Below, in pieces: positions 2,832 through 64,000 of a stretch of 64,000 bases of DNA; the stretch's first letter is position 1; the number at the start of each line of letters is the position of its first letter. The stretch comes from Eledone cirrhosa (taxonomy: Eukaryota). The notes under the pieces are model-generated. The model searched no databases and was not told where the DNA came from. It saw only the letters and a list, made by a program, of their open reading frames with translations. The DNA lies in the NCBI GenBank assembly GCA_964016885.1, contig OZ024740.1, forward strand, positions 92,938,001-93,002,000. The letters are read 5' to 3'. The position numbers and the translations under genes were made by a program.

Positions 2832-2882
2832 GGCTTTCTGATGATTTTCTCTGAATGAAACAGTTCTAGTCCTGTAGAAGCC
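2832..2882 (+). ncRNA. Type I hammerhead ribozyme motif (weak stem II)
   Basis: ggcttt CTGATGA ttttctctgaat GAAAC ag-ttctagtc-ct GTA gaagcc. Stem I is ggcttt/gaagcc, stem III is acag/ctgt, and the triplet is GUA. Confidence 0.6.
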
Positions 2883-14655: not shown

Positions 14656-14948
14656 TAATAACAACAATAATAATAATAATAATAATTATAATAATAATGA
14701 TTTCTTTATTAACCACAAGGCTTTACATAAAGTAGACATTAAGGACGGTGAAGTACAATACAGGATGGTACAAATGGGCATTTCTGCGTCTAAAAAACAA
14801 AAACAGAGGATGTAAAAAAAATTAACAAAGAAAAATTCCCCAATAGGGGGGAGACTTCGTAGGGACATTTGTGGAGAAAGCCCAGTAAAAGGCCACAGTG
14901 ATCCTGACCACCAGGGCAAGTGCCCTCTCCCACTTTGCCACCTTTAAT

Positions 14949-17900: not shown

Positions 17901-18326
17901 CCAGTCGCCCACTAACACTAAAGAGCAGGACGTTTCAAGAAAGGTCTCCAGACGCCGGACGATATCTGGCCGCCCTAGTCCTGTCGGGGCATAGACGGCC
18001 ACTAGCCTGAAAGCTTGCCCGTCTCCGCTGGTCATGTCTAGCAGCACCAACTTACCTTCAGGGTCCAGGAAGATGGCCCGTATGGCGAGATCCAAACCTC
18101 TCCACAAAGGCACAGCAACTCCACACCCCGATCCTGGACGGCTAGGAGATGCGTACACATCGTAGCCGCCGAAGATGGGTGCGAAGGCCCGTGCTTCGGA
18201 GATTTTGGTCTCGTTGATTGCCACTACATCTATGTTTAGTGACCTGAGGTCGTTGAGCAGGTAGACCTGCTTCTATGACGACCACAAGCCACGCGCATTT
18301 ATGCTGCCTATTCTGAGTGAGGTCAT
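14949..18326 (-). pseudogene. L1/Tx1-type ORF2 (APE endonuclease, RT, C-terminal Cys-His), frameshifted
   Basis: MTSLRIGSINARG, AINET, LVAVYAP, LVGDWN, SYLDRVF, KSPGLDG, KVLAKRL, LDQSKAFDMVDH, SVRQG, SAYADDVT, GGLGMP, CPRCAQGDETVLHALVQC. Confidence 0.9.
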
Positions 18327-18359
18327 GTTGAAATGGAGTGGAAAAGATGGGAAATACCA

Positions 18360-20886: not shown

Positions 20887-21020
20887 TACTGGGGAGAGGA
20901 TCAGGGGTGTATAATACTCCACTTATCTAACAGGCAGTATGAGGTTAGCTCGATGTCTGAGGACAGAGCGGTGATATAATCAATAAGAAAGAACGCCTAT
21001 TGCATATGCATATCTTTACT

Positions 21021-21066
21021 TGCTAACATTGTTTCATCCGCACTATAGGTGGGACTCATCAGAGCA
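21021..21066 (-). ncRNA. Minimal type I hammerhead ribozyme in the PLE 3' end
   Basis: Minus strand: tgct CTGATGA gtcc-cacctatagtgc-ggat GAAAC aat GTT agca. Confidence 0.75.
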
Positions 21067-25050: not shown

Positions 25051-25605
25051 AATTACTCTGCGTTGTTATTTTATATTATTATATTATATTATATTCTATT
25101 TTATATAATTTTAATTTTAATTTTATATTATTTTATTCTATTTTATTTCATTCTTTACCCTGTATCACTATTATCTGTATATTTTATATTTTATATGTAT
25201 GTTTTTTTATATTTTCTTATATATATTATAAGTCTATTTTTTACCTATTTTTCACCTATTTTTTATCTACTCTTACCTAATCCTATCTATCTTATCTATT
25301 CTTGTCTGTTCTCTTATCCATGTGTATGCTTGTATGTAACTATATGTTGACAGCACCCCGCCCAACTGTGACTGATAGCACCCCTTATTTTTCAATTATT
25401 TTTCATTGTTTATTTTTCAATGTTTATTTTTATTTTTATTTTTATTTTTATTTTTATTTTTATTTTTATTTTTATTTTTATTTTTATTTTTATTTTTATT
25501 TTTATTTTTATTTTTACTTCCTCAATATCTTTTATTATTTTTCATTCTTTATTTCTTCAATGTCTTGGATTTGTTATTGCTTGTGTGGTATGTAATTAAC
25601 CTTTA

Positions 25606-25651
25606 TGCTCTGATGAGTCCCACTTATAATGCGGATGAAACAATGTTAGCA
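25606..25651 (+). ncRNA. Minimal type I hammerhead ribozyme in the inverted pLTR
   Basis: tgct CTGATGA gtcc-cacttataatgc-ggat GAAAC aat GTT agca. Confidence 0.75.
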
Positions 25652-25691
25652 AGTAAAGATATGCATATGCTATAGGCGTTCTTTGTTATTG

Positions 25692-25740
<49 letters not shown>

Positions 25741-40660: not shown

Positions 40661-41642
<982 letters not shown>

Positions 41643-41644
41643 CC

Positions 41645-42890
41645 AGCGCTCTGGTTAGATACCATTAACAACAAAAAACAAATCCTCCATTCCCATTATG
41701 CCAAACCCATGACTTCCAAACATCTGATCCACCGAAACTCGGCCGTTTCGGACCATACCAAAATCAACATACTGATTGCGGATTTGGTACGGGTGATGAG
41801 AAATGTGTCCCGCATGTGCAACCCCGAAGAACTAGAGAGACACATACAACACTTCATCAACCGTATGCAGTTCTCTGGCTACAATCAGAGAGATAAAATC
41901 AGAGTGTATAGAGGAGCCAGAACCAAATGGGAAAAAATGGTAAATAATGACATAAATGGGACCTGCCCCTTGTATAGGAGCAAATTTTGGAATAGAATAG
42001 AAAGAACTAGAAACAAGGCTAATAGAATAAACTCATGGTATGATAGCAATAAATACTAGAGTGTAATGTTCATCGATACAACCCCTAGAGGTGAATTAGC
42101 TTACAAATTTAGAAGGTCCCTAAATAAACATAAACTCACTATTAAGATAGTAGAAAGACCAGGTACCTCCGTAAAAACACTTATTAGCAAGACATACTCT
42201 TTTCAAAGACCCTCATGTATAGATAAGAAATGTATAACCTGTAAAATAAGCCCCCATATTAACTGTAAAACTAGAAATGTAGTGTATAGCATAAGATGTA
42301 CTGAAGGACAATGTAGAGACAAACATATAGTATACATAGGTGAGACAGCTCGTATTGTAGGGGAACGGATAAATGAACACTGGCGAGACCTTCAAGATAG
42401 TAAATAATCATCTGTACTCTACCAACATGCTAAAATAGAACACAAGGGTAAATTAGAGAACATAGAAATAAAAATAGAATCTACACACAGAAAAGACGCA
42501 ACGTTTAGACAAATTACAGAGGCAATAAACATAAAAGAATTACAACCAAAATTAAATAGAAAATATGAGTGGAACAGCAACATCACAACTTACAATTAAG
42601 GACAAAATGAAAACACACACACACATAGAAAAAACAACCAACCAGTAACATGTAAATAAACAAATAAATAAATGAACATAAACACACACAGACACCCGGA
42701 TGTGGCGCATGCGCAGACTAAGCACACAACACACACACAGAAACAAAATGGCGTAGGACAGAACAAAAGAGAGGCACAGAAACAAAGAAAGGAACCCCCA
42801 GTCACTGAAGAGGTCACAGAGTGTGTGACGAAAGAACTATGACTATATATAAACAACTCTCTGGTTGTGGAACGAACCAACCAACCAGAA
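41645..42890 (+). mobile_element. 5'-truncated Penelope-like element (RT thumb, GIY-YIG, 3' UTR)
   Basis: HYAKPMTSKHLIHRNSA...LVRVMRNVS...RMQFSGY...PLYRSK, then IVERPG...CIDKKCITC...CKTRNVVYSIRC...YIGETAR...RINEH, with in-frame stops. There is an HHR in the 3' UTR. Confidence 0.85.
42800..42844 (+). ncRNA. Minimal type I hammerhead ribozyme in the PLE 3' UTR
   Basis: agtca CTGAAGA g gtcaca-gagtg-tgtgac GAAA gaac TA tgact. Stem I is 5 bp, stem II is 6 bp, and the triplet is CUA. Confidence 0.72.
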
Positions 42891-43054
42891 ATTTATAAAT
42901 TTATAAATTTATTATAAATTTATTATAATAAATTGAAGTGAAAGCACCTGGTGCGTGTGTTTCTTATTGGAAACATGACCCTCCCAAAGTATAACAATAT
43001 CGGTTTCAACACACGATTTCAGATAAAGAATCTTGCTAAACAAATTCAAAAACG

Positions 43055-43169
<115 letters not shown>

Positions 43170-43514
43170 CATATATATATATGTATATATATATATATAC
43201 ATAGTATATTTGGCGGCAATAAAGCGTATGTACATATATATTTGTATATATATATTAAGAGCCTGGGGACATATGTCCCAAGGCTCTAAAACCATTAACA
43301 CCATAAACATGAGGTCATAGACATTCAATAGCTATCATCGAAATATATATAACAGTAAATAATGGATTATGATCATGCAATTGACTTATGTTTCGTCACT
43401 ATTACAACTCCGGAATGTATATCTTCGTTGAGTGCTCCCTATCCGCATATTGAAGTACTCAATACTTAGGGTAGTAGAATGGGTAATAGGAACAAGTAGG
43501 ACCCCGACCTACAT

Positions 43515-43567
43515 ACATACATGTATACATACGTACAGTAGTGTGTAGATATATATATACATGCACA

Positions 43568-43608
<41 letters not shown>

Positions 43609-43885
43609 GCATGGATTCACCGAACATTTATTATAATGCTCGGTATACGGTATACGGTGCTGACGATAGCTAATAAGCTTGAAACTAGTACATCGTTCTT
43701 TTGTCAGTGTTGAACACAAGGGCAACGATGGTTTCTAAACACTGGACGGCTTAAATCGTGATGTTTGTTTACAAAGACACCGAGCATTATAATGAATATT
43801 AGGTGAATCCATACGTACATATATATCTATGTGTGTGCATTTATGTATATATATACATACTACTGTACGTCTGTATACATATATG
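43515..43885. repeat. Diverged inverted repeat with ~120-bp arms
   Basis: atgtacgcatggattcacc...ttataatgctcggt pairs with accgagcattataa...ggtgaatccatacgtacat. Confidence 0.8.
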
Positions 43886-43989
43886 CATGTACGTATACAT
43901 ACTTATATTTAAGTAACAGCCGTACTAAGAGTGTGAAATGAAATTTCGTTTCAGTTTCCGTTTATATATATATATATATATATACAGTA

Positions 43990-44044
43990 TATGTTTAGAG
44001 TGGGAGGGATGGGGAGAGAGAGAAAGAGAGGGAAATAGAGAGAG

Positions 44045-44084
<40 letters not shown>

Positions 44085-45344
44085 ATAAATAAAATAAAGA
44101 GGGGGGAGGAGAAGAAAATAAAAGACATCAAAAGAAAAAGGAGAGAGAAAAAAGGAAGAAAACGAAAATGAATAGAAAAGGAATGAAGGAGAAGGGTGGG
44201 ATATAGGTATTGGTTTTTGTGGGTAATTAAAGAGGTTGTATACAATAAGAGGGTAGAAAGTCTAAGTATATGCATTTTGTCAGGTGGTAGCAAGAGGTTA
44301 AGGGTTAGATTTGGACTTGTAGTGCATATCGGAGTGGTATGAGAAGCTGTCGATTATGTGACTTTGATCTGTTCCACATTTTCAGTTCGAAGAATGAGTT
44401 ACTCAAAAATACAATCGAAAGATCCATTTATTGTAACCATAGCCTCAAAGAAAATGTTCGCACTACAAGTGAAAATCGAACCCTTAACCTCTTACTACCA
44501 CCTGACAAACTGCATATACTTAGACTTTCTACCCTCTTATTGAATACAACCCCTTTAATTACAAACAAAAAACAATACCTATATCCCTCCAATCTCCTTC
44601 ATTCCTTTTCTATTTCTTTTCGTTTTCTTCCTTTCTTCTCTCTCCTTTTTTTGTCTTTTATTTTCTTCTTTCTCTCCTCTTCTCTCTTTATTTATTTTTG
44701 TTTTTTTAAATATATATATATTTATTTATCTATCAATCTCTCCCCTCCCCTTCACGCTCTCTCCGTCTCTCTCTCTCTCTCTCTCCATCCCTCCCAATAT
44801 AAACAATTTAATTCCCTTTAACTCACTACACACTAAATCGACGACATCATGTCTACATATATCAAAACTGATCAAAGATTCCTTCCACCTCTACCCCTCC
44901 CCATCGCAGTTTGTCACCCTACTGCCTATTTCTTCTCCCCATCTCTCTATCTATAATATTCCCTTTGTCCCTCCATTTTCTAATTCCTCTGCCTCTCTCT
45001 CGCTATACTAGCAAATACAATTCCAAAAAATGTTTTATATTAAGAACGTGTTAAGAGTAACTTATTCACTATTTTAAAAACTGGACGTGTACAACAATTA
45101 TTATTGAGTGGCTGCTATTTGCAGTATAGCAATATAAGGTTGCACTTACCAATGAAACGGTCGAAAATACCTGGATAAAATCCTTCTATTTTTTAATGCT
45201 TACCTGTGTTTTCTCTTTTATCCTTTACACTCGAAGATTGAACGTGACTCCTACAAACTTGTGAAGTTAGCCCTAACAGTACATTGACACCGTCCATCAA
45301 ACTTAACCACGAGCTGGATTTCAGTAAGCAATTTTCTGCTTCCC

Positions 45345-45348
<4 letters not shown>
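43990..45348 (+). mobile_element. Heavily truncated PLE with a 5' inversion
   Basis: Inverted arms ~43990-44325 and ~44460-44805. The spacer encodes RSCRLCDFDLFHIFSSKNELLKNTIERSIYCNH, similar to the CNLC...LLN...CPH end of the PLE at 23102-23455. (AT)n lies on both sides. Confidence 0.65.
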
Positions 45349-45385
<37 letters not shown>

Positions 45386-45671
45386 AAATAACGAAACGAA
45401 ATTAAATTTCGTTTCGTTTATAACTCACTTTTGTATGACTGACGCTTAAACAATTAAGTTAAAAATGTACATCCACATATGTATACTGAAATACTAGTAT
45501 GCATATGAATACACACACGTGTACATATGTAGATGTACCGAGTTTTCACTGGTCACTTTACTGTGAGTGTCCAGCTATTCTGTATGTAAACACACAGACA
45601 AACCGGTTTTTAGAGTCATAATGGTTTTTGAGGAAACACCTTTCCTCTATTCTCCAGAAAGCCAGACAAGG

Positions 45672-45716
45672 AATATTGGACTAGTTTCGATGTTGTTACA
45701 TCTCATCAGCAATATT
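45672..45716 (-). ncRNA. Canonical minimal type I hammerhead ribozyme
   Basis: Minus strand: aatattg CTGATGA gatgt-aaca-acatc GAAAC ta GTC caatatt. Stem I is 7 bp, stem II is 5 bp, stem III is the palindrome ACTAGT, and the triplet is GUC. Confidence 0.9.
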
Positions 45717-46136
45717 TACCTATCTTCCGGCCTCTCTAGAGAATCGTGAAAGCACATATCGTTATATGCTTTTTCTATGAAAATTAGTAGTGGGCAGACC
45801 AACTTGCATAGAGTGTGAGTACGTACCGGTTCAACGGAGACGATAAAAACAAATAACGAAACGAAATTAAATTTCGTTTCGTTTGTAACTCACTTTTGTA
45901 TGACTGACGCTTAAACAATTAAGTTAAAAATGTGCATCCACATATGTATACTGAAATACTAGTATGCATATGAATACACATACGTGTACATATGTAGATG
46001 TACCGAGTTTTCACTGGTCACTTTACTGTGAGTGTCCAGCTATTCTGTATGTAAACACACAGACAAACCGGTTTTTAGAGTCATACTGGTTTTTGAGGAA
46101 ACACCTTTCCTCTATTCCCCAGAAAGCCAGACAAGG

Positions 46137-46177
46137 AATATTGGACTAGTTTCGATGTTGTTACATCTCATCAGCAA
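46137..46177 (-). ncRNA. Hammerhead copy with stem I truncated by the inversion junction
   Basis: Same core as 45672-45716, but only ttg of the 5' strand of stem I remains. Confidence 0.75.
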
Positions 46178-46553
46178 AAACCAGTATGACTCTAAAAACC
46201 GGTTTGTCTGTGTGTTTACATACAGAATAGCTGGACACTCACAGTAAAGTGACCAGTGAAAACTCGGTACATCTACATATGTACACGTGTGTGTATTCAT
46301 ATGCATACTAGTATTTCAGTATACACATGTGGATGTACATTTTTAACTTAATTGTTTAAGCGTCAGTCATACAAAAGTGAGTTACAAACGAAACAAAATT
46401 TAATTTCGTTTCGTTATTTGTTTTTATCGTCTCCGTTGAACCGGTACGTACTCACGCTCTATGCAAGTTGGTCTGCCCACTACTAATTTTCATAGAAAAA
46501 GCATATAACGATATGTGCTTTCACGATTCTCTAGAGAGGCCGGAAGATAGGTA

Positions 46554-46598
46554 AATATTGCTGATGAGATGTAACAACATCGAAACTAGTCTAATATT
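46554..46598 (+). ncRNA. Canonical minimal type I hammerhead ribozyme
   Basis: aatattg CTGATGA gatgtaacaacatc GAAAC ta GTC taatatt, with a G-U pair at the base of stem I. Confidence 0.88.
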
Positions 46599-47019
46599 CC
46601 TTGTCTGGCTTTCTGGAAAAATAGGGGAAAGATGTTTCCTCAAAAACCAGTATGACTCTAAAAACCGGTTTGTCTGTGTGTTTACATACAGAATAGCTGG
46701 ACACTCACAGTAAAGTGACCAGTGAAAACTCGGTACATCTACATATGTACACGTGTGTGTATTCATATGCATACTAGTATTTCAGTATACATATGTGGAT
46801 GTACATTTTTAACTTAATTGTTTAAGCGTCAGTCATACAAAAGTGAGTTACAAACGAAACGAAATTTAATTTCGTTTCGTTATTTGTTTTTATCGTCTCC
46901 GTTGAACCGGTACGTACTCACGCTCTATGCAAGTTGGTCTGCCCACTACTAATTTTCATAGGAAAAGCATATAACGATATGTGCTTTCACGATTCTCTAG
47001 AGAGGCCGGAAGATAGATA

Positions 47020-47064
47020 AATATTGCTGATGAGATGTAACAACATCGAAACAAGTCCAATATT
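47020..47064 (+). ncRNA. Minimal type I hammerhead ribozyme (loop 3 variant)
   Basis: aatattg CTGATGA gatgtaacaacatc GAAAC aa GTC caatatt. Confidence 0.85.
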
Positions 47065-47281
47065 CCTTGTCTGGCTTTCTGGAGAATAGAGGAAAGGTGT
47101 TTCCTCAAAAACCAGTATGACTCTAAAAACCGGTTTGTCTGTGTGTTTACATACAGAATAGCTGGACACTCACAGTAAAGTGAACAGTGAAAACTCGGTA
47201 CATCTACATATGTACACGTGTGTGTATTCATATGCATACTAGTATTTCAGTATACATATGTGGATGTACATTTTTAACTTA

Positions 47282-47353
<72 letters not shown>

Positions 47354-47438
47354 GAAACATTGAACGGGAACAAAACAGAGAGGCAGTACAACAAGTGTTT
47401 ATTAATTTCACGCTCTTGATAGTGGGGTGGTGGTGGGG

Positions 47439-47472
47439 AACGACGTTTCGAGCATAAGCCCTTCTTCAGGTT
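47439..47472 (-). ncRNA. Minimal PLE-type hammerhead in a ~240-bp island between (AT)n tracts
   Basis: Minus strand: aac CTGAAGA a gggc-ttat-gctc GAAAC GTC gtt. The ACGT stem III can only form as a dimer. Confidence 0.65.
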
Positions 47473-47586
47473 AAAAGTGTGTGGGAATAGAGTTCAAAGG
47501 GTGTGTATAGGGAGTGGTGGAGAGACATATAGCAAAATGGGGGTGAGAGGAAACGGTGCAAATGAAATTAAAAATAAAGGCATGAT

Positions 47587-47621
<35 letters not shown>

Positions 47622-47626
<5 letters not shown>

Positions 47627-48430
47627 GTTAACATATACATAAAGTTATAGATATATACATGGTGCAACTGGTCACTTTTAAGCTCTATGAAGAATTAATA
47701 AATTAAAAATCAGAGCAATATATCATAAATCATGTCTTTAGAATCATCAGATAAAATATATAATATTTCTTCATCTAATTAGCATAATTAAGCATATAAA
47801 AAATCAATTTTGACCAAGCTATAAGAATAAAGGCTCTTATGGAGAAATCTCCGACAAATAGCCGAACGTAGCTCTTCGCGGTGGCCCCGATCGAGTATTT
47901 ATCCAACATTTCGACAGCATGTAGAAACTGACTAAATATATCATCAACCTTACTCAATTAGGTGTAAAATTAAACTTAGAAGAAATGCGTACATACCGTA
48001 ATTATATCTCTACCATGGTTTCATCCGTATTTTTAGACATCCAAATAATAGGAATGTCCTGAGTTAGGATTCATCAGGAGACAAACTCAGAATCAGACAT
48101 CTAGTTTTTCAATCCGATCCCGCCAAAAATATATTCAAAAATGGCTAAAAATCGCTATGTGGCTGTGGTGAAGCCAGAAAGAATGTGATTGATTGCTTAC
48201 GGCGGCTAGGCTTGCTGCTAGAAAGAGCAGCCACATATTGCCAAATTTAATCTCAACCTATCGGGAGATTATTAAATATAAAGGTTAACATATACATAAA
48301 GTTATAGATATATACATGTTGCAACTGGTCACTTTTAAGTTATATGAACAATTAATAAATTAAAAAATCAGAGCAATATATCATAAATCATGTCTTTAGA
48401 ATCATCAGATAAAATATATACTATTTCTTC
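47622..48430 (-). repeat. Inverted ~1.2 monomers of the 660-bp satellite at the array start
   Basis: Reverse complement of the array monomer. aaaggttaacatatacat recurs ~658 bp apart, and the block abuts (AT)n at 47590-47622. Confidence 0.92.
48007..48081 (-). ncRNA. Type I hammerhead ribozyme, best-paired copy of the satellite motif
   Basis: Minus strand: tctc CTGATGA atcc[taactcaggacattcctattatttggatgtctaaaaatac]ggat GAAAC catg GTA gaga. Confidence 0.78.
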
Positions 48431-49291
48431 TGGCGATATTTAGTATCATAAAATAAAATATATACTATTTCTTTTGGCGATATTTGGCTGCGCTTTCTTG
48501 CAGCAAGCCTACCCGCCGTAAGCAAACAATCACATTCTTTCTGGCTTGACCACAGCTACATAGAGATTCTTAGCCATTATTGAATCTATTTTTGGTGGGA
48601 TTGGATTGAAAAGCTATATGTCTGATTTTGAGTTTCTCTCCTGTTGAATCCTAACTCAGGACATTCCTATTATTTGGATGTCTAAAAATAAGGAAGAAAC
48701 CATGGTAGAGATATAATTACGATATGTACCCATTTCTTCTAAGTTTAATTTTACACCTAATTATGTATGGTTGATGATATATTTAGTCAGTTTCTACATG
48801 CTGTCAAAATGTTGGATAAATACTCGATCGGGGCCACCGCGAAGAGGCTACGTTCGGCTATTTGCCGGAAACTTCTCCATAAGAGCCTTTCTTCTTAAAG
48901 CTTGGTCTAATTGATATTTTATATGGTTAATTATGCTAATTAGAAGAAAAAATAGTATATATTTTATCTGGTGATTCTAAAGACATGATTTATGATATAT
49001 TGCTCTTATTTTTAATTTATTAATTCTTCATAGAGCTTAAAAGTGACCAGTTGCAACATGTATATATCTATAACTTTATGTATATGTTAACCTCTATATT
49101 TAATAATCTCCCGATAGGTTGAGATTAAATTTGGCGATATTTGGCTGCGCTTTGTAGCAGCAAGCCTACCCGCCGTATGCAACCAAACACATTATTTCTG
49201 GCTTGACCACAGCCACATAGCGATTCTTAGCCATTATTGAATGTATTTTTGGCGGGATCGGATTGAAAAGCTAGATGTCTGATTTTGAGTT

Positions 49292-49370
49292 TGTCTCCTG
49301 ATGAATCCTAACTCAGGACATTCCTATTATTTGGATGTCTAAAAATAAGGAAGAAACCATGGTAGAGATA
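49292..49370 (+). ncRNA. Representative satellite hammerhead motif
   Basis: tgtctc CTGATGA a tcct[...gacattc-ctattattt-ggatgtc...]agga a GAAAC catg GTA gagata. Stem III is the palindrome ACCATGGT. Confidence 0.7.
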
Positions 49371-52300
49371 TAATTACGGTATGTAACATTTATTCTAAGT
49401 TTAATTTTACACGTAATTGTGTATGGCTGATGATATATTTAGTCAGTTTCTACATGCTGTCGAAATGTTGGATAAATACTCGATCGGGGCCACCGCGAAG
49501 GGGCTACGTTCGGCTATTTGTCGGAGATTTCTCCATAAGAGCCTTTCTTCTTATAGTTTGGTCTAAGTGATTTTTTATATGGTTAGTTATGCTAATTAGC
49601 AGAAAAAATAGTATATATTTTATCTGATGATTCTAAAGACATGATTTATGATATATTGCTCTGATTTTTAATTTATTAATTCTTCATAGAGCTTAAAAGT
49701 GTCCAGTTGCACCATGTATATATCTATAACTTTATGTATATGTTAACCTCTATATTTAATGATCTCCCGATAGGTTGAGATTAAATTTGGCGATATTTGG
49801 CTGCGCTTTCTAGCAGCAAGCCTACCCGCTGTAAGCAACCAATCACATTCTTTCTGGCTTGACCACAGCCACATAGCGATTCTTAGCCATTTTTGAATCT
49901 ATTTTTGGCGGGATCGGATTGAAAAACTAGATGTCTGATTTTGAGTTTGTCTCCTGATGAATAGTAACTCAGGACATTCCTAATTATTTGGATGTCTAAA
50001 AATAAGGAAGAAACCATGGTAGAGATATAATTACGGTATGTACGCATTTCTTCTAAGTTTAATTTTACACCTAATTGTGTATGGCTGATGATATATTTAG
50101 TCAGTTTCTACATGCTGTCGAAATGTTGGATAAATACTCGATCGGGGCCACCGCGAAGGGGCTACGTTCGGCTATTTGTCGGAGATTTCTCCATAAGAGC
50201 CTTTCTTCTTATAGCTTGGTCTAAGTGATTTTTTATATGGTTAATTATGATAATTAGCAGAAAAAATAGTATATATTTTATCTGATGATTCTAAAGACAT
50301 GATTTATGATATATTGCTCTGATTTTTAATTTATTAATTCTTCATAGAGCTTAAAAGTGACCAGTTGCAACATGTATATATCTATAACTTTATGTATATG
50401 TTAACCTCTATATTTAATAATCTCCTGATAGGTTGAGATTAAATTTGGCGATATTTGGCTGCGTTTTGTAGCAGCAAGCCTACCCGACGTAAGCAACCAA
50501 TCAAATTATTTCTGGCTTGACCACAGCCACATAGCGATTCTTAGCCATTTTTTAATCTATTTTTGGCCGGATCGTTTTGAAAAGCTAGACGTCTGATTTT
50601 GAGTTTGTCTCCTGATGAATCCTAACTCAGGACATTCCTATTATTTGGATGTCTAAAAATAAGGAAGAAACCATGGTAGAGATATAATTACGATATGTAC
50701 GCTTTTCTTCTAAGTTTAATTTTACACCTAATTGTGTATGGTTAATGATATATTTAGTCAGTTTCTACATGCTGTCAAAATGTTGGATAAATACTCGTTC
50801 GGGGCCACCGCGAAGAGGCTACGTTCGGCTATTTGTCGGAAATTTCTCCATAAGTGCCTTTCTTCTTATAGCTTGGTCTAAGTGATTTTGTATATGGTTA
50901 CTTATGCTAATTAGAAGAAGAAATAGTATATATTTTATCTGATGATTCTAAAGACATGATTTATGATATATTGCTCTGATTTTTTATTTATTAATTCTTC
51001 ATAGAGCTTAAAAGTGACCAGTTGCACCATGTATATATCTATAACTTTATCTATATGTTAACCTCTATATTTAATAATCTCCCGATAGGTTGAGATAATA
51101 TTTAGGCGATATTTGGCTGCGTTATGTAGCAGCACGCCTACCCGACGTATGCAATCAAACACATTATCTCTGGCTTGACCACAGCCACATAGCGATTCTT
51201 AGCCATTTTTGAATCTGTTTTTGGCGGGATCGGATCTAAAAACTAGATGTCTGACTTTGAGTTTTTCTCCTGATGAATAGTAACTCAGGACATTCCTATT
51301 ATTTGGATATCTAAAAATAAAGAAGAAAACTTGGTAGAGATATAATTACGGTATGTACGCATTTCTTCTAAGTTTAATTTTACACGTAATTGTGTATGGC
51401 TGATGATATATTTAGTCAGTTTCTACATGCTGTCGAAATGTTGGATAAATACTCGTTCGGGGCCACCGTGAAGAGGCAACGTTCGGCTATTTGTCGGAGA
51501 TTTCTCCATAAGTGCCTTTCTTATAGCTTGGTCTAATTGATATTTTATATGGTTAATTATGCTAATTAGAAGAAGAAATAGTATATATTTTATCTGATGA
51601 TTCTAAAGACATGATTTATGATATATTGCTCTGATTTTTTTTTTTTTTTATTTATTAATTCTTCATATAGCCTAAAAGTGACCAGTTGCAACATGTATAT
51701 ATCTATAACTTTATATATATGTTAACCTTTATATTTAATAATCTCCCGATTGGTTGAGATAAAGTTTGGCCATATTTGGCTGCGCATTCTAGCACCAAAC
51801 CTACCCGCCGTAAGCAACCAATCACATTCTTTCTGGCTTGACCACAGCCACATAGCGATTCTTAGCCAATTTTGAATCTATTTTTGGCGGGATCGGATTG
51901 AAAAGCTAGATGTCTGATTTTGAGTTTGTCTCCTGATGAATCCTAACTCCGGACATTCCTATTATTTGGATGTCTAAAAATAAGGAAGAAACCATAGTAG
52001 ATATAAAATTACGGTACGTACGCATTTCTTCTAAGTTTAATTTTACAGCTAATTTTGTATGGTTGATGATATATTTAATCAGTTTCTACATGCTGTCGAA
52101 ATATTGGATGAATACTCGATCGAGGCCACCGCGAAGAGGCTACGTTCGGCTATTTGTCGGAGATTTCTCCATAAGAGCCTTTCTTCTTATAGTTTGGTCT
52201 AATTGATTTTTTATATGGTTACTTATGCAAATTAGAAGAAGAAATAGTATATATTTTATCTGATGATTCTAAAGACATGATTTATGATATATCGCTGTGA

Positions 52301-53255
52301 TTTTTTAATTTTTTAATTCTTCATAGAGCTTAAAAGTGACCAGTTGCACCATGTATATATCTGTAACTTTATGTAATGTTAACATTTATATTTGATAATC
52401 TCCCGATAGGTTGAGATTAAATTTGGCGATATTTGGCTGCGCTTTCTAGCAGCAAGCCTACCCACCGTAAGCAACCAATCACATTATTTCTGGCTTGACC
52501 ACAGCCACATAGCGATTCTTAGCCTATTTTGAATCTATTTTTGGCGGGATCGGATTGAAAAGCTAGATGTCTGATTTTGAGTTTGTCTCCTGATGAATCC
52601 TAACTCAGGACATTCCTATTATTTGGATGTCTAAAAATAAGGAAGAAACCATGGTAGAGATATAATTACGGTATGTAACATTTATTCTAAGTTTAATTTT
52701 ACACGTAATTGTGTATGGTTGATGATATATTTAGTCAGTTTCTACATGCTGTCGAAATGTTGGATGAATACTCGATCGAGGCCACCGCGAAGAGGCTACG
52801 TTCGGCTATTTGTCGGAGATTTCTCCATAAGAGCCTTTCTTCTTATAGTTTGGTCTAATTGATTTTTTATATGGTTACTTATGCAAATTAGAAGAAGAAA
52901 TAGTATATATTTTATCTGATGATTCTAAAGACATGATTTATGATATATCGCTCTGATTTTTAATTTATTAATTCTTTATAGAGCTTGAAAGTGACCAGTT
53001 GCAACATGTATATATCTATAACTTTATGTATATGTTAACCTTTATATTTAATAATCTCCCGATAGATTGAAGTTAAATTTGGCAATATTTGGCTGCGCTT
53101 TCTAGCAGCAAGCCTACCCGCCGTAAGCAACCAATCACATTATTTCTGGCTTGACCACAGCCACATAGAGATTCTTAGCCATTTTTGAATCTATTTTTGG
53201 TGGGATCGGATTGAAAAGCTAGATGTCTGATTCAGAGTTTGTCTCCTGATGAATA

Positions 53256-56200
53256 GTAACTCAGGACATTCCTGTTATTTGGATGTCTAAAAATAAGGAA
53301 GAAACCATGGTAGAGATATAATTACGGTATGTACGAATTTCTTCTAAGTTTAATTTTACACCTAATTGTGTATGGTTGATGATATATTTAATCAGTTTCT
53401 ACATGCTGTCGAAATATTGGATGAATACTCGATCGAGGCCACCGCGAAGAGGCTACGTTCGGCTATTTGTCGGAGATTTCTCCATAAGAGCCTTTCTTCT
53501 TATAGTTTGGTCTAATTGATTTTTTATATGGTTACTTATGAAAATTAGAAGAAGAAATAGTATATATTTTATCTGATGATTCTAAAGACATGATTTATGA
53601 TATATCGCTCTGATTTTTAATTTATTAATTCTTCATAGAGCTTGAAAGTGACCAGTTGCAACATGTATATATCTATAACTTTATGTATATGTTAACCTTT
53701 ATATTTAATAATCTCCCGATAGATTGAAGTTAAATTTGGTAATATTTGGCTCCGCTTTCTAGCAGCAAGCCTACCCGCCGTAAGCATCAATCACATTATT
53801 TTTGGCTTGACCACAGCCACATAGCGATTCTTAGCCTATTTTGAATCTATTTTTGGCGGGATCGGATTGAAAAGCTAGATGTCTGATTTTGAGATTGTCT
53901 CCTGATGAATCCTAACTCAGGACATTCCTATTATTTGGATGTCTAAAAATAAGGAAGAAACCATGGTAGAGATATACATACGATATGTACGCATTTCTTC
54001 TAAGTTTAATTTTAGACCTAATTGTGTATGGTTGATGATATATTTAGTCAGTTTCTACATGCTGTCGAAATGTTGGATAAATACTCGATCGGGGCCACCG
54101 TGAAGAGGCAACGTTCGGCTATTTGTCGGAGATTTCTCCATAAGGGCCTTTCTTCTGATAGCTTGGTCTAATTGATATTTTATATGGTTAATTATGCTAA
54201 TTAGAAGAAGAAATAGTATATATTTTATCTGAATTCTAAAGACATGATTTATGATATATTGCACTGATTTTTTTTTTTTTTATTTATTAATTCTTCATAT
54301 AGCCTAAAAGTGACCAGTTGCAACATGTATATATCTATAACTTTATATATATGTTAACCTTTATATTTAATAATCTCCCGATAGGTTGAGATAAAATTTG
54401 GCGATATTTGGCTGCGCATTCTAGCACCAAACCTACCCGCCGTAAGCAACCAATCACATTCTTTCTGGCTTGACCACAGCCACATAGCGATTCTTAGCCA
54501 ATTTTGAATCTATTTTTGGCGGGATCGGATTGAAAAGCTAGATGTCTGATCTTGAGTTTGTCTCCTGATGAACAGTAACTCAGGACATTCCTATTATTTG
54601 GATGTCTAAAAATAAGGAAGAAACCATGGTAGAGATATAATTACGATATGTACGCATTTCTTCTAAGTTTAATTTTAGACCTAATTGTGTATGGTTGATG
54701 ATATATTTAGTCAGTTTCTACATGCTGTCGAAATGTTGGATAAATACTCGATCGGGGCCACCGTGAAGAGGCTACGTTCGGCTATTTGTCGGAGATTTCT
54801 CCATAAGAGCCTTTCTTCTTATAGATTGGTCGAATTGATTTTTTATATGGTTAATTATGCTAATTAGAAGAAGAAATAGTATATATTTTATCTGATGATT
54901 CTCAAGATATGATTTATGATATATTGCTCTGATTTTTTTTTTAATTCATTTATTAATTCTTCATATAGCCTAAAAGTGACCAGTTGCAACATGTATATAT
55001 CTATAACTTTATGTATATGTTAACCTTTATATTTAATAATCTCCCGATAGATTGAAGTTAAATTTGGCAATATTTGGCTGCGCTTTCTAGCAGCAAGCCT
55101 ACCCGCTGTAAGCAACCAATCACATTATTTCTGGCTTGACCACAGCCACATAGAGATTCTTAGCCATTTTGGAATCTATTTTTGGTGGGATCGGATTGAA
55201 AAGCTAGATGTCTGATCTTGAGTTTGTCTCCTGATGAACAGTAACTCAGGACATTCCTGTTATTTGGATGTCTAAAAATAAGGAAGAAACCATGGTAGAG
55301 ATATAATTACGGTATGTCCGAATTTCTTCTAAGTTTAATTTTACACCTAATTGTGTATGGCTGATGATATATTTAGTCAGTTTCTACATGCTGTCGAAAT
55401 GTTGGATAAATACTCGATCGGGGCCACCGCGAAGGGGCTACGTTCGGCTATTTGTCGGAGATTTCTCCATAAGAGCCTTTCTTCTTATAGCTTGGTCTAA
55501 GTGATTTTTTATATGGTTACTTATGCTAATTAGAAGAAGAAATATTATATATTTTATCTGATGATTCTAAAGACATGATTTATGATATATTGCTCAGATT
55601 TTTTAATTTATTAATTCTTCATAGAGCTTAAAAGTGACCAGTTGCAACATGTATATATCTATAACTTTATATATATGTTAAGCTCTATATTTAATAATCT
55701 CCCGATAGTTTGAGATTACATTTGGCGATATTTGGCTGCGCTTTCTAGCAGCAAGCCTACCCGACGTAAGCAACCAATCACATTCTTTCTGGTTTGACCA
55801 CAGCGACATAGCGATTCTTAGACATTTTTGAATCTATTTTTGGCGGGATCGGATTGAAAAACTAGATGTCTGATTTTGAGTTTTTCTCCTGATGAATAGT
55901 AACTCAGGACATTCCTATTATTTGGATGTCTAAAAATAAGGAAGAAACCATGGTAGAGATATAATTACGATATGTACGCATTTCTTCTAAGTTTAATTTT
56001 ACACCTAATTGTGTATGGTTGATGATATATTTAGTCAGTTTCTACATGCTGTCGAAATGTTGGATAAATACGCGATCGGGGCCACCGCGAAGAGGCAACG
56101 TTCGGCTATTCGTCAGAAATTTCTCCATAAGAGCCTTTCTTCTTATAGCTTGGTCTAATTGGTTTTTTTATATGGTTAATTATGCTAATTAGAAAAGAAA

Positions 56201-59200
56201 TAGTATATATTTTATCTGATGGTACTAAAGACATGATTTATGATATATTGCTCTGATTTTTAATTTATTAATTCTTCATAGAGCTTAAAAGTGACCAGTT
56301 GCAACATGTATATATCTATAACTTTATATATATGTTAAGCTCTATATTTAATAATCTCCCGATAGTTTGAGATTACATTTGGCGATATTTGGTTGCGCTT
56401 TCTAGCAGCAAGCCTAGCCGCCGTAAGCAACCAATCACATTATTTCTGGCTTGACCAAAGCCACATAGCGATTCTTAGCCATTTTTGAATCTATATTTGG
56501 TGGGATCGGATTGAAAAGCTAGATGTCTGATCTTGAGTTTGTCTCCTGATGAATCCTAACTCAGGACATTCCCATTATTTGGATGTCTAAAAATAAGGAA
56601 GAAAACATGGTAGAGATATAATTACGGTATGTACGCATTTCTTCTAAGTTTAATTTTACACCTAATTGTGTATGGTTGATGATATATTTAGTCAGTTACT
56701 ACATGCTGTCGAAATGTTGGATAAATACTCGATCGGGGCCACCGCGAAGGGGCTACGTTCGGCTATTTGTCGGAGATTTCTCCATAAGAGCCTTTCTTCT
56801 TATAGCTTGGTCTAAGTGATTTTTTATATGGTTACTTATACTAATTAGAAGAAGAAATAGTATATATTTTATCTGATGATTCTAAAGACATGATTTATGA
56901 TATATTGCGCTGATTTTTTTTTTTTTTATTTATTAATTCTTCATAGAGCTTAAAAGTGACCAGTTGCAACATGTATATATCTATAACTTTATCTAAATGT
57001 TAACCTCTATATTTAATAATCTCCCGATAGGTTGAGATTAAATTTGGCAATATTTGGCTGCGCTTTCTAGCAGCAAGCCTACCCGCCGTAAGCAACCAAT
57101 CACATTATTTCTGGCTTGACCACAGCTATATAGAGATTCTTAGCCATTTTTGAATCTATTTTTGGTGGGATCGGATTGAAAAGCTAGATGTCTGATCTTG
57201 AGTTTGTCTCCTGATGAACAGTAACTCAGGACATTCCTGTTATTTGGATGTCTAAAAATAAGGAAGAAACCATGGTAGAGATATAATTACGGTATGTACG
57301 AATTTCTTCTAAGTTTAATTTTACACCTAATTGTGTATGGTTGATGATATATTTAATCAGTTTCTACATGCTGTCGAAATATTGGATGAATACTCGATCG
57401 AGGCCACCGCGAAGAGGCTACGTTCGGCTATTTGTCGGAGATTTCTCCATAAGAGCCTTTCTTCTTATAGTTTGGTCTAATTGATTTTTTATATGGTTAC
57501 TTATGAAAATTAGAAGAAGAAATAGTATATATTTTATCTGATGATTCTAAAGACATGATTTATGATATATCGCTCTGATTTTTAATTTATTAATTCTTCA
57601 TAGAGCTTGAAAGTGACCAGTTGCAACATGTATATATCTATAACTTTATGTATATGTTAACCTTTATATTTAATAATCTCCCGATAGATTGAAGTTAAAT
57701 TTGGTAATATTTGGCTCCGCTTTCTAGCAGCAAGCCTACCCGCCGTAAGCATCAATCACATTATTTCTGGCTTGACCACAGCCACATAGCGATTCTTAGC
57801 CTATTTTGAATCTATTTTTGGCGGGATCGGATTGAAAAGCTAGATGTCTGATTTTGAGATTGTCTCCTGATGAATCCTAACTCAGGACATTCCTATTATT
57901 TGGATGTCTAAAAATAAGGAAGAAACCATGGTAGAGATATACATACGATATGTACGCATTTCTTCTAAGTTTAATTTTAGACCTAATTGTGTATGGTTGA
58001 TGATATATTTAGTCAGTTTCTACATGCTGTCGAAATGTTGGATAAATACTCGATCGGGGCCACCGTGAAGAGGCAACGTTCGGCTATTTGTCGGAGATTT
58101 CTCCATAAGGGCCTTTCTTCTGATAGCTTGGTCTAATTGATATTTTATATGGTTAATTATGCTAATTAGAAGAAGAAATAGTATATATTTTATCTGAATT
58201 CTAAAGACATGATTTATGATATATTGCACTGATTTTTTTTTTTTTTATTTATTAATTCTTCATATAGCCTAAAAGTGACCAGTTGCAACATGTATATATC
58301 TATAACTTTATATATATGTTAACCTTTATATTTAATAATCTCCCGATAGGTTGAGATAAAATTTGGCGATATTTGGCTGCGCATTCTAGCACCAAACCTA
58401 CCCGCCGTAAGCAACCAATCACATTCTTTCTGGCTTGACCACAGCCACATAGCGATTCTTAGCCAATTTTGAATCTATTTTTGGCGGGATCGGATTGAAA
58501 AGCTAGATGTCTGATCTTGAGTTTGTCTCCTGATGAACAGTAACTCAGGACATTCCTATTATTTGGATGTCTAAAAATAAGGAAGAAACCATGGTAGAGA
58601 TATAATTACGATATGTACGCATTTCTTCTAAGTTTAATTTTAGACCTAATTGTGTATGGTTGATGATATATTTAGTCAGTTTCTACATGCTGTCGAAATG
58701 TTGGATAAATACTCGATCGGGGCCACCGTGAAGAGGCTACGTTCGGCTATTTGTCGGAGATTTCTCCATAAGAGCCTTTCTTCTTATAGATTGGTCGAAT
58801 TGATTTTTTATATGGTTAATTATGCTAATTAGAAGAAGAAATAGTATATATTTTATCTGATGATTCTCAAGATATGATTTATGATATATTGCTCTGATTT
58901 TTTTTTTAATTCATTTATTAATTCTTCATATAGCCTAAAAGTGACCAGTTGCAACATGTATATATCTATAACTTTATGTATATGTTAACCTTTATATTTA
59001 ATAATCTCCCGATAGATTGAAGTTAAATTTGGCAATATTTGGCTGCGCTTTCTAGCAGCAAGCCTACCCGCTGTAAGCAACCAATCACATTATTTCTGGC
59101 TTGACCACAGCCACATAGAGATTCTTAGCCATTTTGGAATCTATTTTTGGTGGGATCGGATTGAAAAGCTAGATGTCTGATCTTGAGTTTGTCTCCTGAT

Positions 59201-61305
59201 GAACAGTAACTCAGGACATTCCTGTTATTTGGATGTCTAAAAATAAGGAAGAAACCATGGTAGAGATATAATTACGGTATGTCCGAATTTCTTCTAAGTT
59301 TAATTTTACACCTAATTGTGTATGGCTGATGATATATTTAGTCAGTTTCTACATGCTGTCGAAATGTTGGATAAATACTCGATCGGGGCCACCGCGAAGG
59401 GGCTACGTTCGGCTATTTGTCGGAGATTTCTCCATAAGAGCCTTTCTTCTTATAGCTTGGTCTAAGTGATTTTTTATATGGTTACTTATGCTAATTAGAA
59501 GAAGAAATATTATATATTTTATCTGATGATTCTAAAGACATGATTTATGATATATTGCTCAGATTTTTTAATTTATTAATTCTTCATAGAGCTTAAAAGT
59601 GACCAGTTGCAACATGTATATATCTATAACTTTATATATATGTTAAGCTCTATATTTAATAATCTCCCGATAGTTTGAGATTACATTTGGCGATATTTGG
59701 CTGCGCTTTCTAGCAGCAAGCCTACCCGACGTAAGCAACCAATCACATTCTTTCTGGTTTGACCACAGCGACATAGCGATTCTTAGACATTTTTGAATCT
59801 ATTTTTGGCGGGATCGGATTGAAAAACTAGATGTCTGATTTTGAGTTTTTCTCCTGATGAATAGTAACTCAGGACATTCCTATTATTTGGATGTCTAAAA
59901 ATAAGGAAGAAACCATGGTAGAGATATAATTACGATATGTACGCATTTCTTCTAAGTTTAATTTTACACCTAATTGTGTATGGTTGATGATATATTTAGT
60001 CAGTTTCTACATGCTGTCGAAATGTTGGATAAATACGCGATCGGGGCCACCGCGAAGAGGCAACGTTCGGCTATTCGTCAGAAATTTCTCCATAAGAGCC
60101 TTTCTTCTTATAGCTTGGTCTAATTGGTTTTTTTATATGGTTAATTATGCTAATTAGAAAAGAAATAGTATATATTTTATCTGATGGTACTAAAGACATG
60201 ATTTATGATATATTGCTCTGATTTTTAATTTATTAATTCTTCATAGAGCTTAAAAGTGACCAGTTGCAACATGTATATATCTATAACTTTATATATATGT
60301 TAAGCTCTATATTTAATAATCTCCCGATAGTTTGAGATTACATTTGGCGATATTTGGTTGCGCTTTCTAGCAGCAAGCCTAGCCGCCGTAAGCAACCAAT
60401 CACATTATTTCTGGCTTGACCAAAGCCACATAGCGATTCTTAGCCATTTTTGAATCTATATTTGGTGGGATCGGATTGAAAAGCTAGATGTCTGATCTTG
60501 AGTTTGTCTCCTGATGAATCCTAACTCAGGACATTCCCATTATTTGGATGTCTAAAAATAAGGAAGAAAACATGGTAGAGATATAATTACGGTATGTACG
60601 CATTTCTTCTAAGTTTAATTTTACACCTAATTGTGTATGGTTGATGATATATTTAGTCAGTTACTACATGCTGTCGAAATGTTGGATAAATACTCGATCG
60701 GGGCCACCGCGAAGGGGCTACGTTCGGCTATTTGTCGGAGATTTCTCCATAAGAGCCTTTCTTCTTATAGCTTGGTCTAAGTGATTTTTTATATGGTTAC
60801 TTATACTAATTAGAAGAAGAAATAGTATATATTTTATCTGATGATTCTAAAGACATGATTTATGATATATTGCGCTGATTTTTTTTTTTTTTATTTATTA
60901 ATTCTTCATAGAGCTTAAAAGTGACCAGTTGCAACATGTATATATCTATAACTTTATCTAAATGTTAACCTCTATATTTAATAATCTCCCGATAGGTTGA
61001 GATTAAATTTGGCAATATTTGGCTGCGCTTTCTAGCAGCAAGCCTACCCGCCGTAAGCAACCAATCACATTATTTCTGGCTTGACCACAGCTATATAGAG
61101 ATTCTTAGCCATTTTTGAATCTATTTTTGGTGGGATCGGATTGAAAAGCTAGATGTCTGATCTTGAGTTTGTCTCCTGATGAACAGTAACTCAGGACATT
61201 CCTGTTATTTGGATGTCTAAAAATAAGGAAGAAACCATGGTAGAGATATAATTACGGTATGTACGAATTTCTTCTAAGTTTAATTTTACACCTAATTGTG
61301 TATGG
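53256..61305 (+). repeat. Higher-order repeat: a 3965-bp six-monomer unit in two apparently identical copies
   Basis: Identical spurious ORFs are offset by 3965 (54055/58020 and 54685/58650). Monomer-specific variants recur at the same offset from ~53256 to ~57340. Confidence 0.9.
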
Positions 61306-64000
61306 CTGATGATATATTTAGTCAGTTTCTACATGCTGTCGAAATGTTGGATAAATACTCGATCGGGGCCACCGCGAAGGGGCTACGTTCGGCTATTTGT
61401 CGGAGATTTCTCCATAAGAGCCTTTCTTCTTATAGCTTGGTCTAAGTGATTTTTTATATGGTTACTTATGCTAATTAGAAGAAGAAATATTATATATTTT
61501 ATCTGATGATTCTAAAGACATGATTTATGATATATTGCTCAGATTTTTTAATTTATTAATTCTTCATAGAGCTTAAAAGTGACCAGTTGCAACATGTATA
61601 TATCTATAACTTTATATATATGTTAAGCTCTATATTTAATAATCTCCCGATAGGTTGAGATCAAATTTGGCGATATTTGGCGGCGCTTTCTAGCAGCAAG
61701 CCTACCCGCCGTAAGCAACCAATCACATTCTTTCTGGCTTGACCACAGCCACATAGCGATTCTTAGCCATTTTTGAATCTATTTTTGGCGGGATCGGATT
61801 GAAAAGCTAGATATCTGATTCTGAGTTTGTCTCCTGATGAATTCTAACTCAGGACATTCCTATTATTTGAATGTCTAAAAATAAGGAAGAAACCATGGTA
61901 GAGATATAAGTACGGTATGTACGCATTTCTTCTAAGTTTAATTTTACACCTAATTGTGTATGGTTGAAGATATATTTAGTCAGTTTCTACATGCTGTCGA
62001 AATGTTGGATAAATACTCGATCGGGGCCACCGCGAAGAGGCTACGTTCGGCTATTTGTCGGAAATTTCTCCTTAAGAGCCTTTCTTCTTATAGCTTGGTC
62101 TAATTGATTTTTTATATGGTTAATTATGATAATTAGAAGAAGAAATAGTATATATTTTATCTGATGATTCTAAAGAAATGATTTATGAAATATTGCTCTG
62201 ATTTTTAATTTATTAAATCTTCATAGAGCTTAAAATTGACCAGTTGCAACATGTATATATCTATAACTTTATGTATAAGTTAACCTCTATATTTAATAAT
62301 CTCCCGATAGGTTGAGATTAAATTTGGCGATATTTGGCTGCGCTTTCTAGCAGCAAGCCTACCCGCCGTAAGCAAACAATCACATTATTTCTGGCTTGAC
62401 CACAGCAACATATTGATTCTTAGCCATTTTTGGATCTAATTTTGGCGGGATCGGATTGAAAATCTAGATGTCTGATTTTGTGTTTGTCTCCTGATGAATG
62501 CTAACTCAGGACATTCCTATTATTTGGATGTCTAAAAATAAGGAAGAAACCATGGTAGAGATATAATTACCGTATGTACGCATTTCTTCTAAGTTTAATT
62601 TTACACCTAATTGTGTATGGTTGATGATATATTTAGTCAGTTTCTACATGCTGTCGAAATGTTGGATAAATACTCGATCGGGGCCACCGCGAAGGGGTTA
62701 CGTTCGGCTATTTGTCGGAGATTTCTCCATAAGAGCCTTTCTTCTTATAGCTTGGTCTAATTGATTTTTTATATGGTTAATTATGCTAATTAGAAGAAGA
62801 AATAGTATATATTTTATCTGATGATTCTGAATACATGATTTATGATATATTGCTCTGATTTTTTAATCTTTTCATTTATTAATTCTTCATAGAGCTGAAA
62901 AGTGACCAGTTGCAACATGTATATATCTATAACTTTATCTCTGTTAACATCTATATTTAATAATCTCCCGATAGGTTGAGATCAAATTTGGCGATATTTG
63001 GCTGCGCTTTCTAGCAGCAAGCCTAGCCGCCGTAAGCAACAAATCACATTCTTTCTGGCTTGACCACAGCAACATATTGATTCTTAGCCATTTTTGAATC
63101 TAATTTTGGCGGGATCGGATTGAAAATCTAGATGTCTGATTTTGAGTTTGTCTCCTGATGAATCCTAACTCAGGACATTCCTATTATTTGGATGTCTAAA
63201 AATAAGGAAGAAACAATGGTAGAGATATAATTACGATATGTACGCATTTCTTCTAAGTTTAATTTTAGACCTAATTGTGTATGGTTGATGATATATTTAG
63301 TCAGTTTCTACATGCTGTCGAAATGTTGGATAAATACTCGATCGGGGCCACCGCGAAGGGGCAACGTTCGGCTATTTGACGGAGATTTCTCAATAAGAGC
63401 CTTTCTTCTTGTAGCTTGGTCTAAGTGATTTTGTATATGGTTACTTATGCTAATTAGAAGAAGAAATAGTATATATTTTATCTGATGGATCTAAAGACAG
63501 TATTTATGATATATTGCTCTTATTTTTAATTTAATAATTCTTCATAGAGCTTAAAAGGGACCAGTTGCAACATGTATATATCTATAACTTTATGTATATG
63601 ATAACCTCTATATTTAATAATCTCCCGATAGGTTGAGATTAAATTTGGCGATATTTGGCTGCGCTTTCTAGCAGCAAGCCTACCCGCCGTAAGCAACCAA
63701 AAACATTCTTTCTGGCTTGACCACAGCTACATAGCGATTCTTAGCCATTATTGAATCTATTTTTGGTGGGATCTGATTGAAAAGTTAGATGTCTGATTTT
63801 GAGTTTGTCTCCTGATGAATCCTAACTCAGGACATTCCTATTATTTGTATGTCTAAAAATAAGGAAGAAACCATGGTAGAGATATAATTACGGTATGTAC
63901 GCATTTCTTCTAAGTTTAATTTTAGACCTAATTGTGTATGGTTGATGATATATTTAGTCAGTTTCTACATGCTGTCGAAATGTTGGATAAATACTCGATC

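Follow-up and report, generated by a model that had tools for sequence, protein, structure and literature searches.

A satellite array with hammerhead motifs and an inverted, (TA)n-anchored end in Eledone cirrhosa, and its likeness to Penelope-like insertions

Penelope-like elements (PLEs) carry an inverted, 5'-truncated copy at their 5' end and often target (TA)n, and how their tandem and inverted structure arises is still to be explained (PMC8557442). In vitro, both strands of AT-rich DNA were cut and extended by a PLE protein in purified form, which mainly used uncleaved RNA (PMC11167929). Non-LTR retrozymes, which adjoin PLEs, are low-GC tandem repeats that code for no protein; a type I hammerhead whose stem III is palindromic is present in every unit (PMC7229834; bioRxiv 10.64898/2026.07.22.740005). 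Their mobilisation by PLE proteins has been proposed from co-occurrence and terminal-repeat homology, with the mechanism still to be worked out (bioRxiv 10.64898/2026.07.22.740005). The start of their arrays has been modelled either as tandem cDNA made from a circle (PMC7229834) or as local amplification of one terminal repeat (bioRxiv 10.64898/2026.07.22.740005). Long satellite arrays with type I hammerhead units are also described for newt satellite 2 and the Schistosoma W-elements (PMC7229834, PMC8490949).

The locus described here lies in a window of 64,000 nucleotides from Eledone cirrhosa, AT-rich animal DNA that is rich in (TA)n tracts and retroelement remains and whose repeat landscape may be like that of cephalopod assemblies, and consists of the left end of a 657-bp satellite array. 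Like the non-LTR retrozymes, the array is composed of tandem, non-coding, low-GC units (33-35%), in each of which a type I hammerhead motif is combined with a palindromic stem III, and it adjoins PLEs; its unit size is within the 51-972 bp given in bioRxiv 10.64898/2026.07.22.740005 and above the usual 150-450 bp of retrozymes. With the endonuclease-bearing PLEs (Neptune, Naiad and others; PMC8557442, PMC11167929) it shares the inverted 5'-truncated copy, the (TA)n, the tandem units and the hammerhead in the repeat. Unlike them, the array has no RT or GIY-YIG ORF, and no PLE terminal repeat related to the 657-bp monomer was found at positions 1-47600 of the window beyond AT-rich noise. The PLE tail of 30-40 bp between outer ends compares with an offset of ~69 nt in a neighbouring 466-bp element. 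As in L1 twin priming (PMC2912911, PMC11702581), the locus has what can be read as a head-to-head cDNA join, microhomology at the outer junction and internal breakpoints that may be near each other on one template. Unlike L1, it has no poly(A) and no visible target-site duplication, its template is tandem and its junction doubled, and the internal breakpoints are 30-38 nt apart, compared to 1-10 bp for L1 (PMC11702581). The likeness to newt satellite 2 and the Schistosoma W-elements is one of description; in comparison with these, the array edge and its younger neighbour display insertion structure.

The ingredients have all been published separately: satellites made of retrozymes, inversions in PLEs, the targeting of (TA)n, and twin priming. 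With every part on record and a layout that is frequent in this genome, the locus would not surprise a PLE specialist. Inverted, (TA)n-anchored array ends are not described in the main texts of PMC7229834, where the word "inverted" does not occur, and of bioRxiv 10.64898/2026.07.22.740005, where it occurs once, in the title of a reference. Nor did we find a description of such ends, or of doubled junctions, on retrozyme arrays in the literature searched, which consisted of main texts rather than supplements and included few subscription papers. The locus is valuable because it allows the origin of retrozyme arrays to be tested directly: the PLE insertion signature is found on a hammerhead repeat that encodes no protein, in two neighbouring forms, one young and complete and the other old and expanded, and the array-start models can be tested on sequence alone.

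The left array end and its duplicated seam

The preliminary description of this DNA had reported an (AT)n tract, about 1.2 inverted monomers and a junction, and this order is borne out: (AT)16 is followed by an inverted arm of 808 bp, equal to 1.23 monomers, and then by the forward array (Table 1). Compared with the forward array in reverse complement, the arm shows 91-95% identity. The tract at the left array end is of the (TA)n type that PLE-type insertions target. When the ribozyme strand is taken as sense, the arm adjoins the (AT)n with its 3' end, and the array starts directly at the arm's truncated 5' end. The hammerhead strand thereby sets the orientation as that of an inverted 5'-truncated copy adjoining the 5' end, as in a PLE-type insertion. 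On the monomer, the first base of the array and the outer end of the inverted arm are 30-38 nt apart, as one template primed twice would give; such closeness has a chance of ~12% by simple arithmetic (76/657). The notion that a special hairpin in this gap stalled synthesis was rejected, since 41% of 39-nt windows were equally stable in folding and an equally stable end-to-end hairpin occurred in 60 of 658 cases.

Table 1. Positions of the features discussed, numbered from the first letter of the window
Feature	Position	Strand	Remarks
Decayed PLE	~20889-25698		RT remnant with YRDD motif, C-terminal GIY-YIG remnant, inverted terminal arm
(TA)17, left end of 466-bp element	45349-45382	strandless	
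Inverted arm of 466-bp repeat	45383-46177	-	1.7 units
Forward 466-bp repeat	46175-47289	+	2.4 units, the full ones each with a type I hammerhead
(TA)33, right end of 466-bp element	47286-47351	strandless	
Single-copy 239-bp fragment	47352-47590	-	Minimal hammerhead-like motif at ~47442-47469, read by eye
(AT)16 target microsatellite	47591-47623	strandless	TATAT (5-nt) microhomology with the monomer at the junction
Inverted arm, 657-bp family	47624-48431	-	619-nt monomer (47624-48242) and 189-nt part of the preceding monomer (48243-48431)
Predicted type I hammerhead, inverted copy	48005-48083	-	Motif scan
Duplication, copy 1	48395-48438	+	Contains first inversion breakpoint (48431/48432)
Duplication, copy 2	48439-48482	+	Four differences; contains the "filler" (48442-48452) and second breakpoint (near 48473)
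Forward array, 657-bp family	48476-64000	+	23 full monomers of 656-666 bp and one partial; runs beyond the window end
Six-monomer (3965-bp) period duplication	53738-61010	+	Monomers 9-13 and 15-19 differ by 0-0.16%

A string that had been noted twice at the junction is 33 nt long and occupies 48409-48441 and 48453-48485; the two occurrences differ by one mismatch and are separated by 11 nt. These 11 nt, previously taken for a short filler, are in register with the 11 nt preceding the first string and represent the mutated start of a second 44-bp copy, which rules out random untemplated sequence. The seam as a whole is a head-to-tail tandem duplication of 44 bp, with 40 of 44 positions identical and a 3-nt TTT microhomology, and the switch from inverted to forward sequence is present inside each copy. 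All four differences lie in the second copy, the first having the family sequence; under later mutation alone, four changes in the second copy and none in the first have a P of 0.01-0.03. One of the four could be explained without mutation, provided that the microhomology of the second join was slightly different. The remaining three make a 9-mer that recurs exactly at 48379-48387 (chance ~0.017 by simulation), which hints weakly at one more template switch.

In the 15.5 kb of the forward array, a scan for duplications with a period of 20-99 and at least 30 of 33 matches found nothing comparable. Because of this absence, the seam on the breakpoint is not background, and it very probably formed together with the junction. 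The position of the scar supports its having been made during joining, but the aborted and repeated priming proposed earlier is indistinguishable from repair synthesis: the seam may have been synthesised by a reverse transcriptase or by a host repair polymerase, as the sequence fits either. None of seven other inversion centres examined has a comparable duplication, save one 16-bp palindromic case at 33495. There, a 16-bp near-duplication (33495-33526) is centred in a 650-bp palindrome (33184-33834), possibly a second junction scar.

Hammerhead motifs of the satellite and its neighbours

The hammerhead predicted in the inverted copy is composed of a 6-bp stem I, CUGAUGA, a 4-bp stem II, GAAA, a palindromic CCAUGG stem III and a UA site, with an unusually long, structured loop II of 39 nt; its folding energy is -15.8 kcal/mol when constrained to the hammerhead and -16.1 kcal/mol when free. 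The pattern scan found the hammerhead layout on the plus strand of the monomer. A strict form of the motif, with cut-offs chosen once the motif had been seen, occurred in 0 of 20000 dinucleotide shuffles of one monomer, and a loose form in 17 of 20000. In the forward copies, the core is preserved in 23 of 24, GAAA and UH in all 24, and full stems I and III in 19 of 24 each. The base pair at the foot of stem II is kept in the inverted copy only; all 24 forward copies have A.A at this site, and half of them (12) have lost further stem II pairs.

The usual metazoan hammerhead has a short palindromic stem III, is functional in dimers and shows a highly conserved G10.1-C11.1 pair (PMC4209133). This pair is missing in the satellite, where it is replaced by A-U in the inverted copy and A.A in the forward copies, and is G-C in the 466-bp neighbour. 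The long loop II, the missing G10.1-C11.1 pair and the unpaired stem II base in 24 of 24 forward copies set the array apart from the non-LTR retrozymes as described (PMC7229834; bioRxiv 10.64898/2026.07.22.740005). Rfam returned no match at gathering thresholds in the whole window. At E values up to 10 in positions 43000-50500, the 657-bp motif was again undetected and the hammerheads of the 466-bp element stood out among microsatellite-driven miRNA noise. The ribozyme activity of the 657-bp motif is uncertain because Rfam is silent and the G10.1-C11.1 pair is missing. The stem II base provides a one-base prediction for cleavage.

As in the non-LTR retrozymes, the units are head to tail (24 monomer starts), low in GC (0.32-0.36) and non-coding, with a hammerhead core and stems I and III per unit. 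The array contains no ORF of at least 120 aa, and accordingly neither the RT nor the GIY-YIG ORF of an autonomous PLE. In active retrozymes, as defined in bioRxiv 10.64898/2026.07.22.740005, a complete hammerhead occurs in at least two consecutive units, and here none of the 24 forward copies pairs at the stem II base. The satellite resembles a decayed non-LTR retrozyme array, because its monomer carries a type I hammerhead motif, and judged by its sequence it is likely to be one; we filed it as a decayed retrozyme-derived satellite rather than an active retrozyme because stem II pairing survives in the single inverted copy alone. A 30-nt probe of the family had no match in bacterial and archaeal genomes, as expected.

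The 466-bp repeat, to which the preliminary description had assigned the same layout, does show the order of (TA)n, inverted and forward parts, but not the scar: inverted and forward parts are joined cleanly at 46175-46177 on 3 nt of microhomology, and the seam is not duplicated. Rfam HH9 matches were obtained at 45656-45727 on the minus strand (E 2.9e-7, 38.9 bits, under the gathering score of 52) and at 46543-46614 and 47009-47080 (E 6.5e-6 and 7.1e-7, also under the gathering score). The copies are 98% identical; all of the 17 variable columns reflect a change in a single copy, which is the pattern expected from one template. This count covers 3-5 copies per column and ignores misaligned end residues of two partial copies. 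The internal breakpoints are ~214 nt apart, and the outer-end offset is ~69 nt. The sequence features are those of a complete, young retrozyme-like insertion with a canonical-looking type I hammerhead, and as such the 466-bp element is better evidence for PLE-type mobilisation than the 657-bp array.

Between the two lies the 239-bp fragment, of which no second copy was found at positions 1-47600. Its motif has a stem I of 3 bp and is absent from the pattern-scan and Rfam results. The fragment probably represents a PLE terminal repeat that was truncated and lies within the same microsatellite. From 45349 to 47623, the 466-bp element, the 239-bp fragment and the 657-bp array follow in series, all of them hammerhead-bearing, and the three serial insertions probably share what was one (TA)n tract.

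The inverted, (TA)n-flanked layout is routine in this region. Upstream, between 20.7 and 47 kb (20666-47289), there are 13 inverted pairs or palindromic structures, 12 of which have an outer end within 100 bp of a (TA)5 or longer tract (P 2e-4), a count in which palindromic alignments may extend into the (TA)n tract itself. The decayed PLE upstream has opposed hammerheads near both of its (TA)n ends, at 21025-21062 (minus strand) and 25610-25647 (plus strand), and an extension of ~85 nt at its left end. Relative to the hammerhead strand, its inversion has the same orientation as those of the 657-bp array and the 466-bp element. The GIY-YIG remnant gave a weak Pfam match (E 0.008), an Atlas feature score of 0.97 to GIY-YIG clusters and no match among 136 candidates. 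Taken together, the sense strand fixed by the hammerhead, the complete 466-bp neighbour and the decayed PLEs of the same layout upstream support and strengthen the reading of the inversion as PLE-style, within a preliminary interpretation that holds in part.

Additional remains were observed in the window. Further PLE-like ORF remnants occur at ~29214-30180 (minus strand) and ~41610-42560 (plus strand), and more hammerhead-like motifs at 37981-38057 (minus strand) and at 42805-42839, 43660-43690 and 2838-2876 (plus strand). An intact non-LTR retrotransposon ORF of 1141 aa (6289-9714; RVT_1, E 1e-22), the closest database relatives of which are ~60-66% identical, is accompanied by a decayed tandem copy of that element (10850-14684, 90% identity). 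A fragmented non-LTR retrotransposon on the minus strand (15534-19880) includes endonuclease-like, RT-like and ORF1-like pieces, as judged by eye from translations. A 93-bp tandem repeat (32296-32558) has 2.9 copies with 86% matches.

Proposed double priming and its alternatives

Judging from its layout, the array's left end probably marks where the enzyme of a Penelope-like element made the original insertion. We consider it reasonably probable that PLE-driven double priming seeded the array and that unequal crossing-over then expanded it. The events whose order, enzyme, RNA and cleavage we infer would lead to the observed layout, duplication, motif with its decay and DNA-level array growth as follows. 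A PLE endonuclease/reverse transcriptase acting in trans would cut both strands within the (TA)n tract. Both ends would then prime cDNA synthesis, with sense RNA in multimeric or circular form as the template; the left end would do so via TATAT, with 808 nt copied. The two cDNAs would meet head to head and be joined a first time, whereupon synthesis would proceed for 10 nt along the forward strand; a 44-nt slip back on TTT, error-prone recopying and a second join at almost the identical base would then produce the seam. The forward copies would subsequently multiply and recombine as DNA, losing stem II pairing, and the inverted copy, being in the wrong orientation for unequal crossing-over, would retain it. 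Because a PLE protein extends both strands and uses uncleaved RNA, it could supply the two cDNAs and permits a multimeric template.

Against double priming stands the fact that the product would be identical if the DNA had been inverted in place and a small deletion had occurred; moreover, the internal gap is wider than in L1 and unlike that of the 466-bp element. Also weighing against it are the silence of Rfam on the 657-bp motif, with its A-U pair and long loop II even in the inverted copy, the lack of a related PLE terminal repeat at positions 1-47600, the ordinary divergence of the inverted monomer, and the want of a like duplication at the other inversion centres examined, save the 16-bp case. 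In the rival account, the left end of an existing array was inverted by a microhomology-mediated, polymerase-theta-like process, either during the repair of a break or through a template switch in replication. Such a process would also yield the 44-bp duplication and would require no retroposition here. Such an origin appears unlikely to us, even though arm and array are almost contiguous on the monomer, with only the 30-38 nt missing, both breakpoints show microhomology, and the filler 9-mer is repeated nearby like a templated insertion. In addition, 10 of the 23 substitutions of the inverted monomer are common to forward monomers (2.6 expected, P 6e-5), and three of the six substitutions by which the two inverted monomers differ in 160 nt are alleles present in the forward array (P 0.024-0.054). 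The common alleles, however, are equally expected if the inverted copy retains ancestral states, and inversion in place leaves unexplained both the (TA)n ends of 12 of 13 neighbours and the polarity match to the ribozyme strand, which this locus has in common with the 466-bp element and the upstream PLE. Since the arm is close to no internal monomer, the nearest being 4.7% away, it cannot have arisen by recent inversion of any of the 24 visible monomers.

It is more doubtful still that two events or templates were involved, the arm being a separate cDNA of a cleavage-competent member that was joined to a forward cDNA, or to an array edge, from a ribozyme-dead source. This would account for the stem II difference without a sweep across 24 monomers and for the 12 columns that set the inverted monomer apart from all forward monomers, but 7-12 such columns are also found in each of the seven forward monomers examined, and the near-contiguity of the breakpoints is reduced to a coincidence (at the ~12% computed above). 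We regard as very improbable that the seam has nothing to do with the origin of the inversion and goes back to slippage at a later time or to a fault of the assembly: it is an in-register tandem unit with 3-nt microhomology, known here from the assembly rather than from reads, but 15.5 kb of the same repeat contain no other such duplication and its two copies differ at four sites. A fold-back read artefact in particular is ruled out by divergence, as the arm differs by 4.7-7.8% from every forward monomer.

Double priming by a PLE enzyme could be extended, tentatively and with considerable doubt, to a satellite life history preserved in place. A PLE enzyme would have double-primed a retrozyme RNA into (TA)n, the forward copies would have lost the ribozyme and turned into ordinary satellite, the inverted seed, its orientation protecting it against homogenisation, would have kept a working ancestral ribozyme, and the 466-bp neighbour would represent the same process before expansion. 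If this is true, inverted array ends would form a genome-wide archive of satellite founders.

The inverted monomer and growth of the forward array

The junction had been proposed as the founding junction of the satellite, which is not established: the tree is unrooted, the inverted monomers may have been already diverged, and DNA inversion yields the same product. At most, the junction is the seed of this array, and not of the family. By distance, the inverted monomer nests with no young internal monomer (nearest 4.7%), and the monomer tree, a check put forward with that proposal, does not resolve it as basal. The tree has 18 rows and no outgroup, with 11 of its 15 inner branches open; it omits monomers 15-20, which are duplicated or recombinant, as well as monomer 24, which is partial, and the inverted part of 189 nt. 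The inverted monomer stands out neither in mean distance (6.25%, compared to 4.4-7.4%) nor in private changes (13, compared to 0-12 in others).

Without CpG and three common sites, 6 of 18 substitutions of the inverted monomer are still common to forward monomers (P 0.01). Common alleles of this kind fit retained ancestral states or one recombining pool alike, and were therefore set aside as proof against a basal inverted copy. The stem II base pair, a single site at which back-mutation by chance is ~1-2% by arithmetic, favours an inverted copy that would be older or separately templated. The differences between the two inverted monomers suggest instead an already diverged template or later conversion, and the two signals argue in opposite directions on the founder question.

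Growth and recombination of the array took place at the DNA level. A period of six monomers is duplicated almost without change (Table 1), monomer 20, at 61011, is a recombinant, and 586 of 1596 pairs of informative sites in the 18-row alignment are incompatible. The near-identical six-monomer block and the recombinant monomer (53738-61300) represent either a nascent higher-order repeat or an assembly join.
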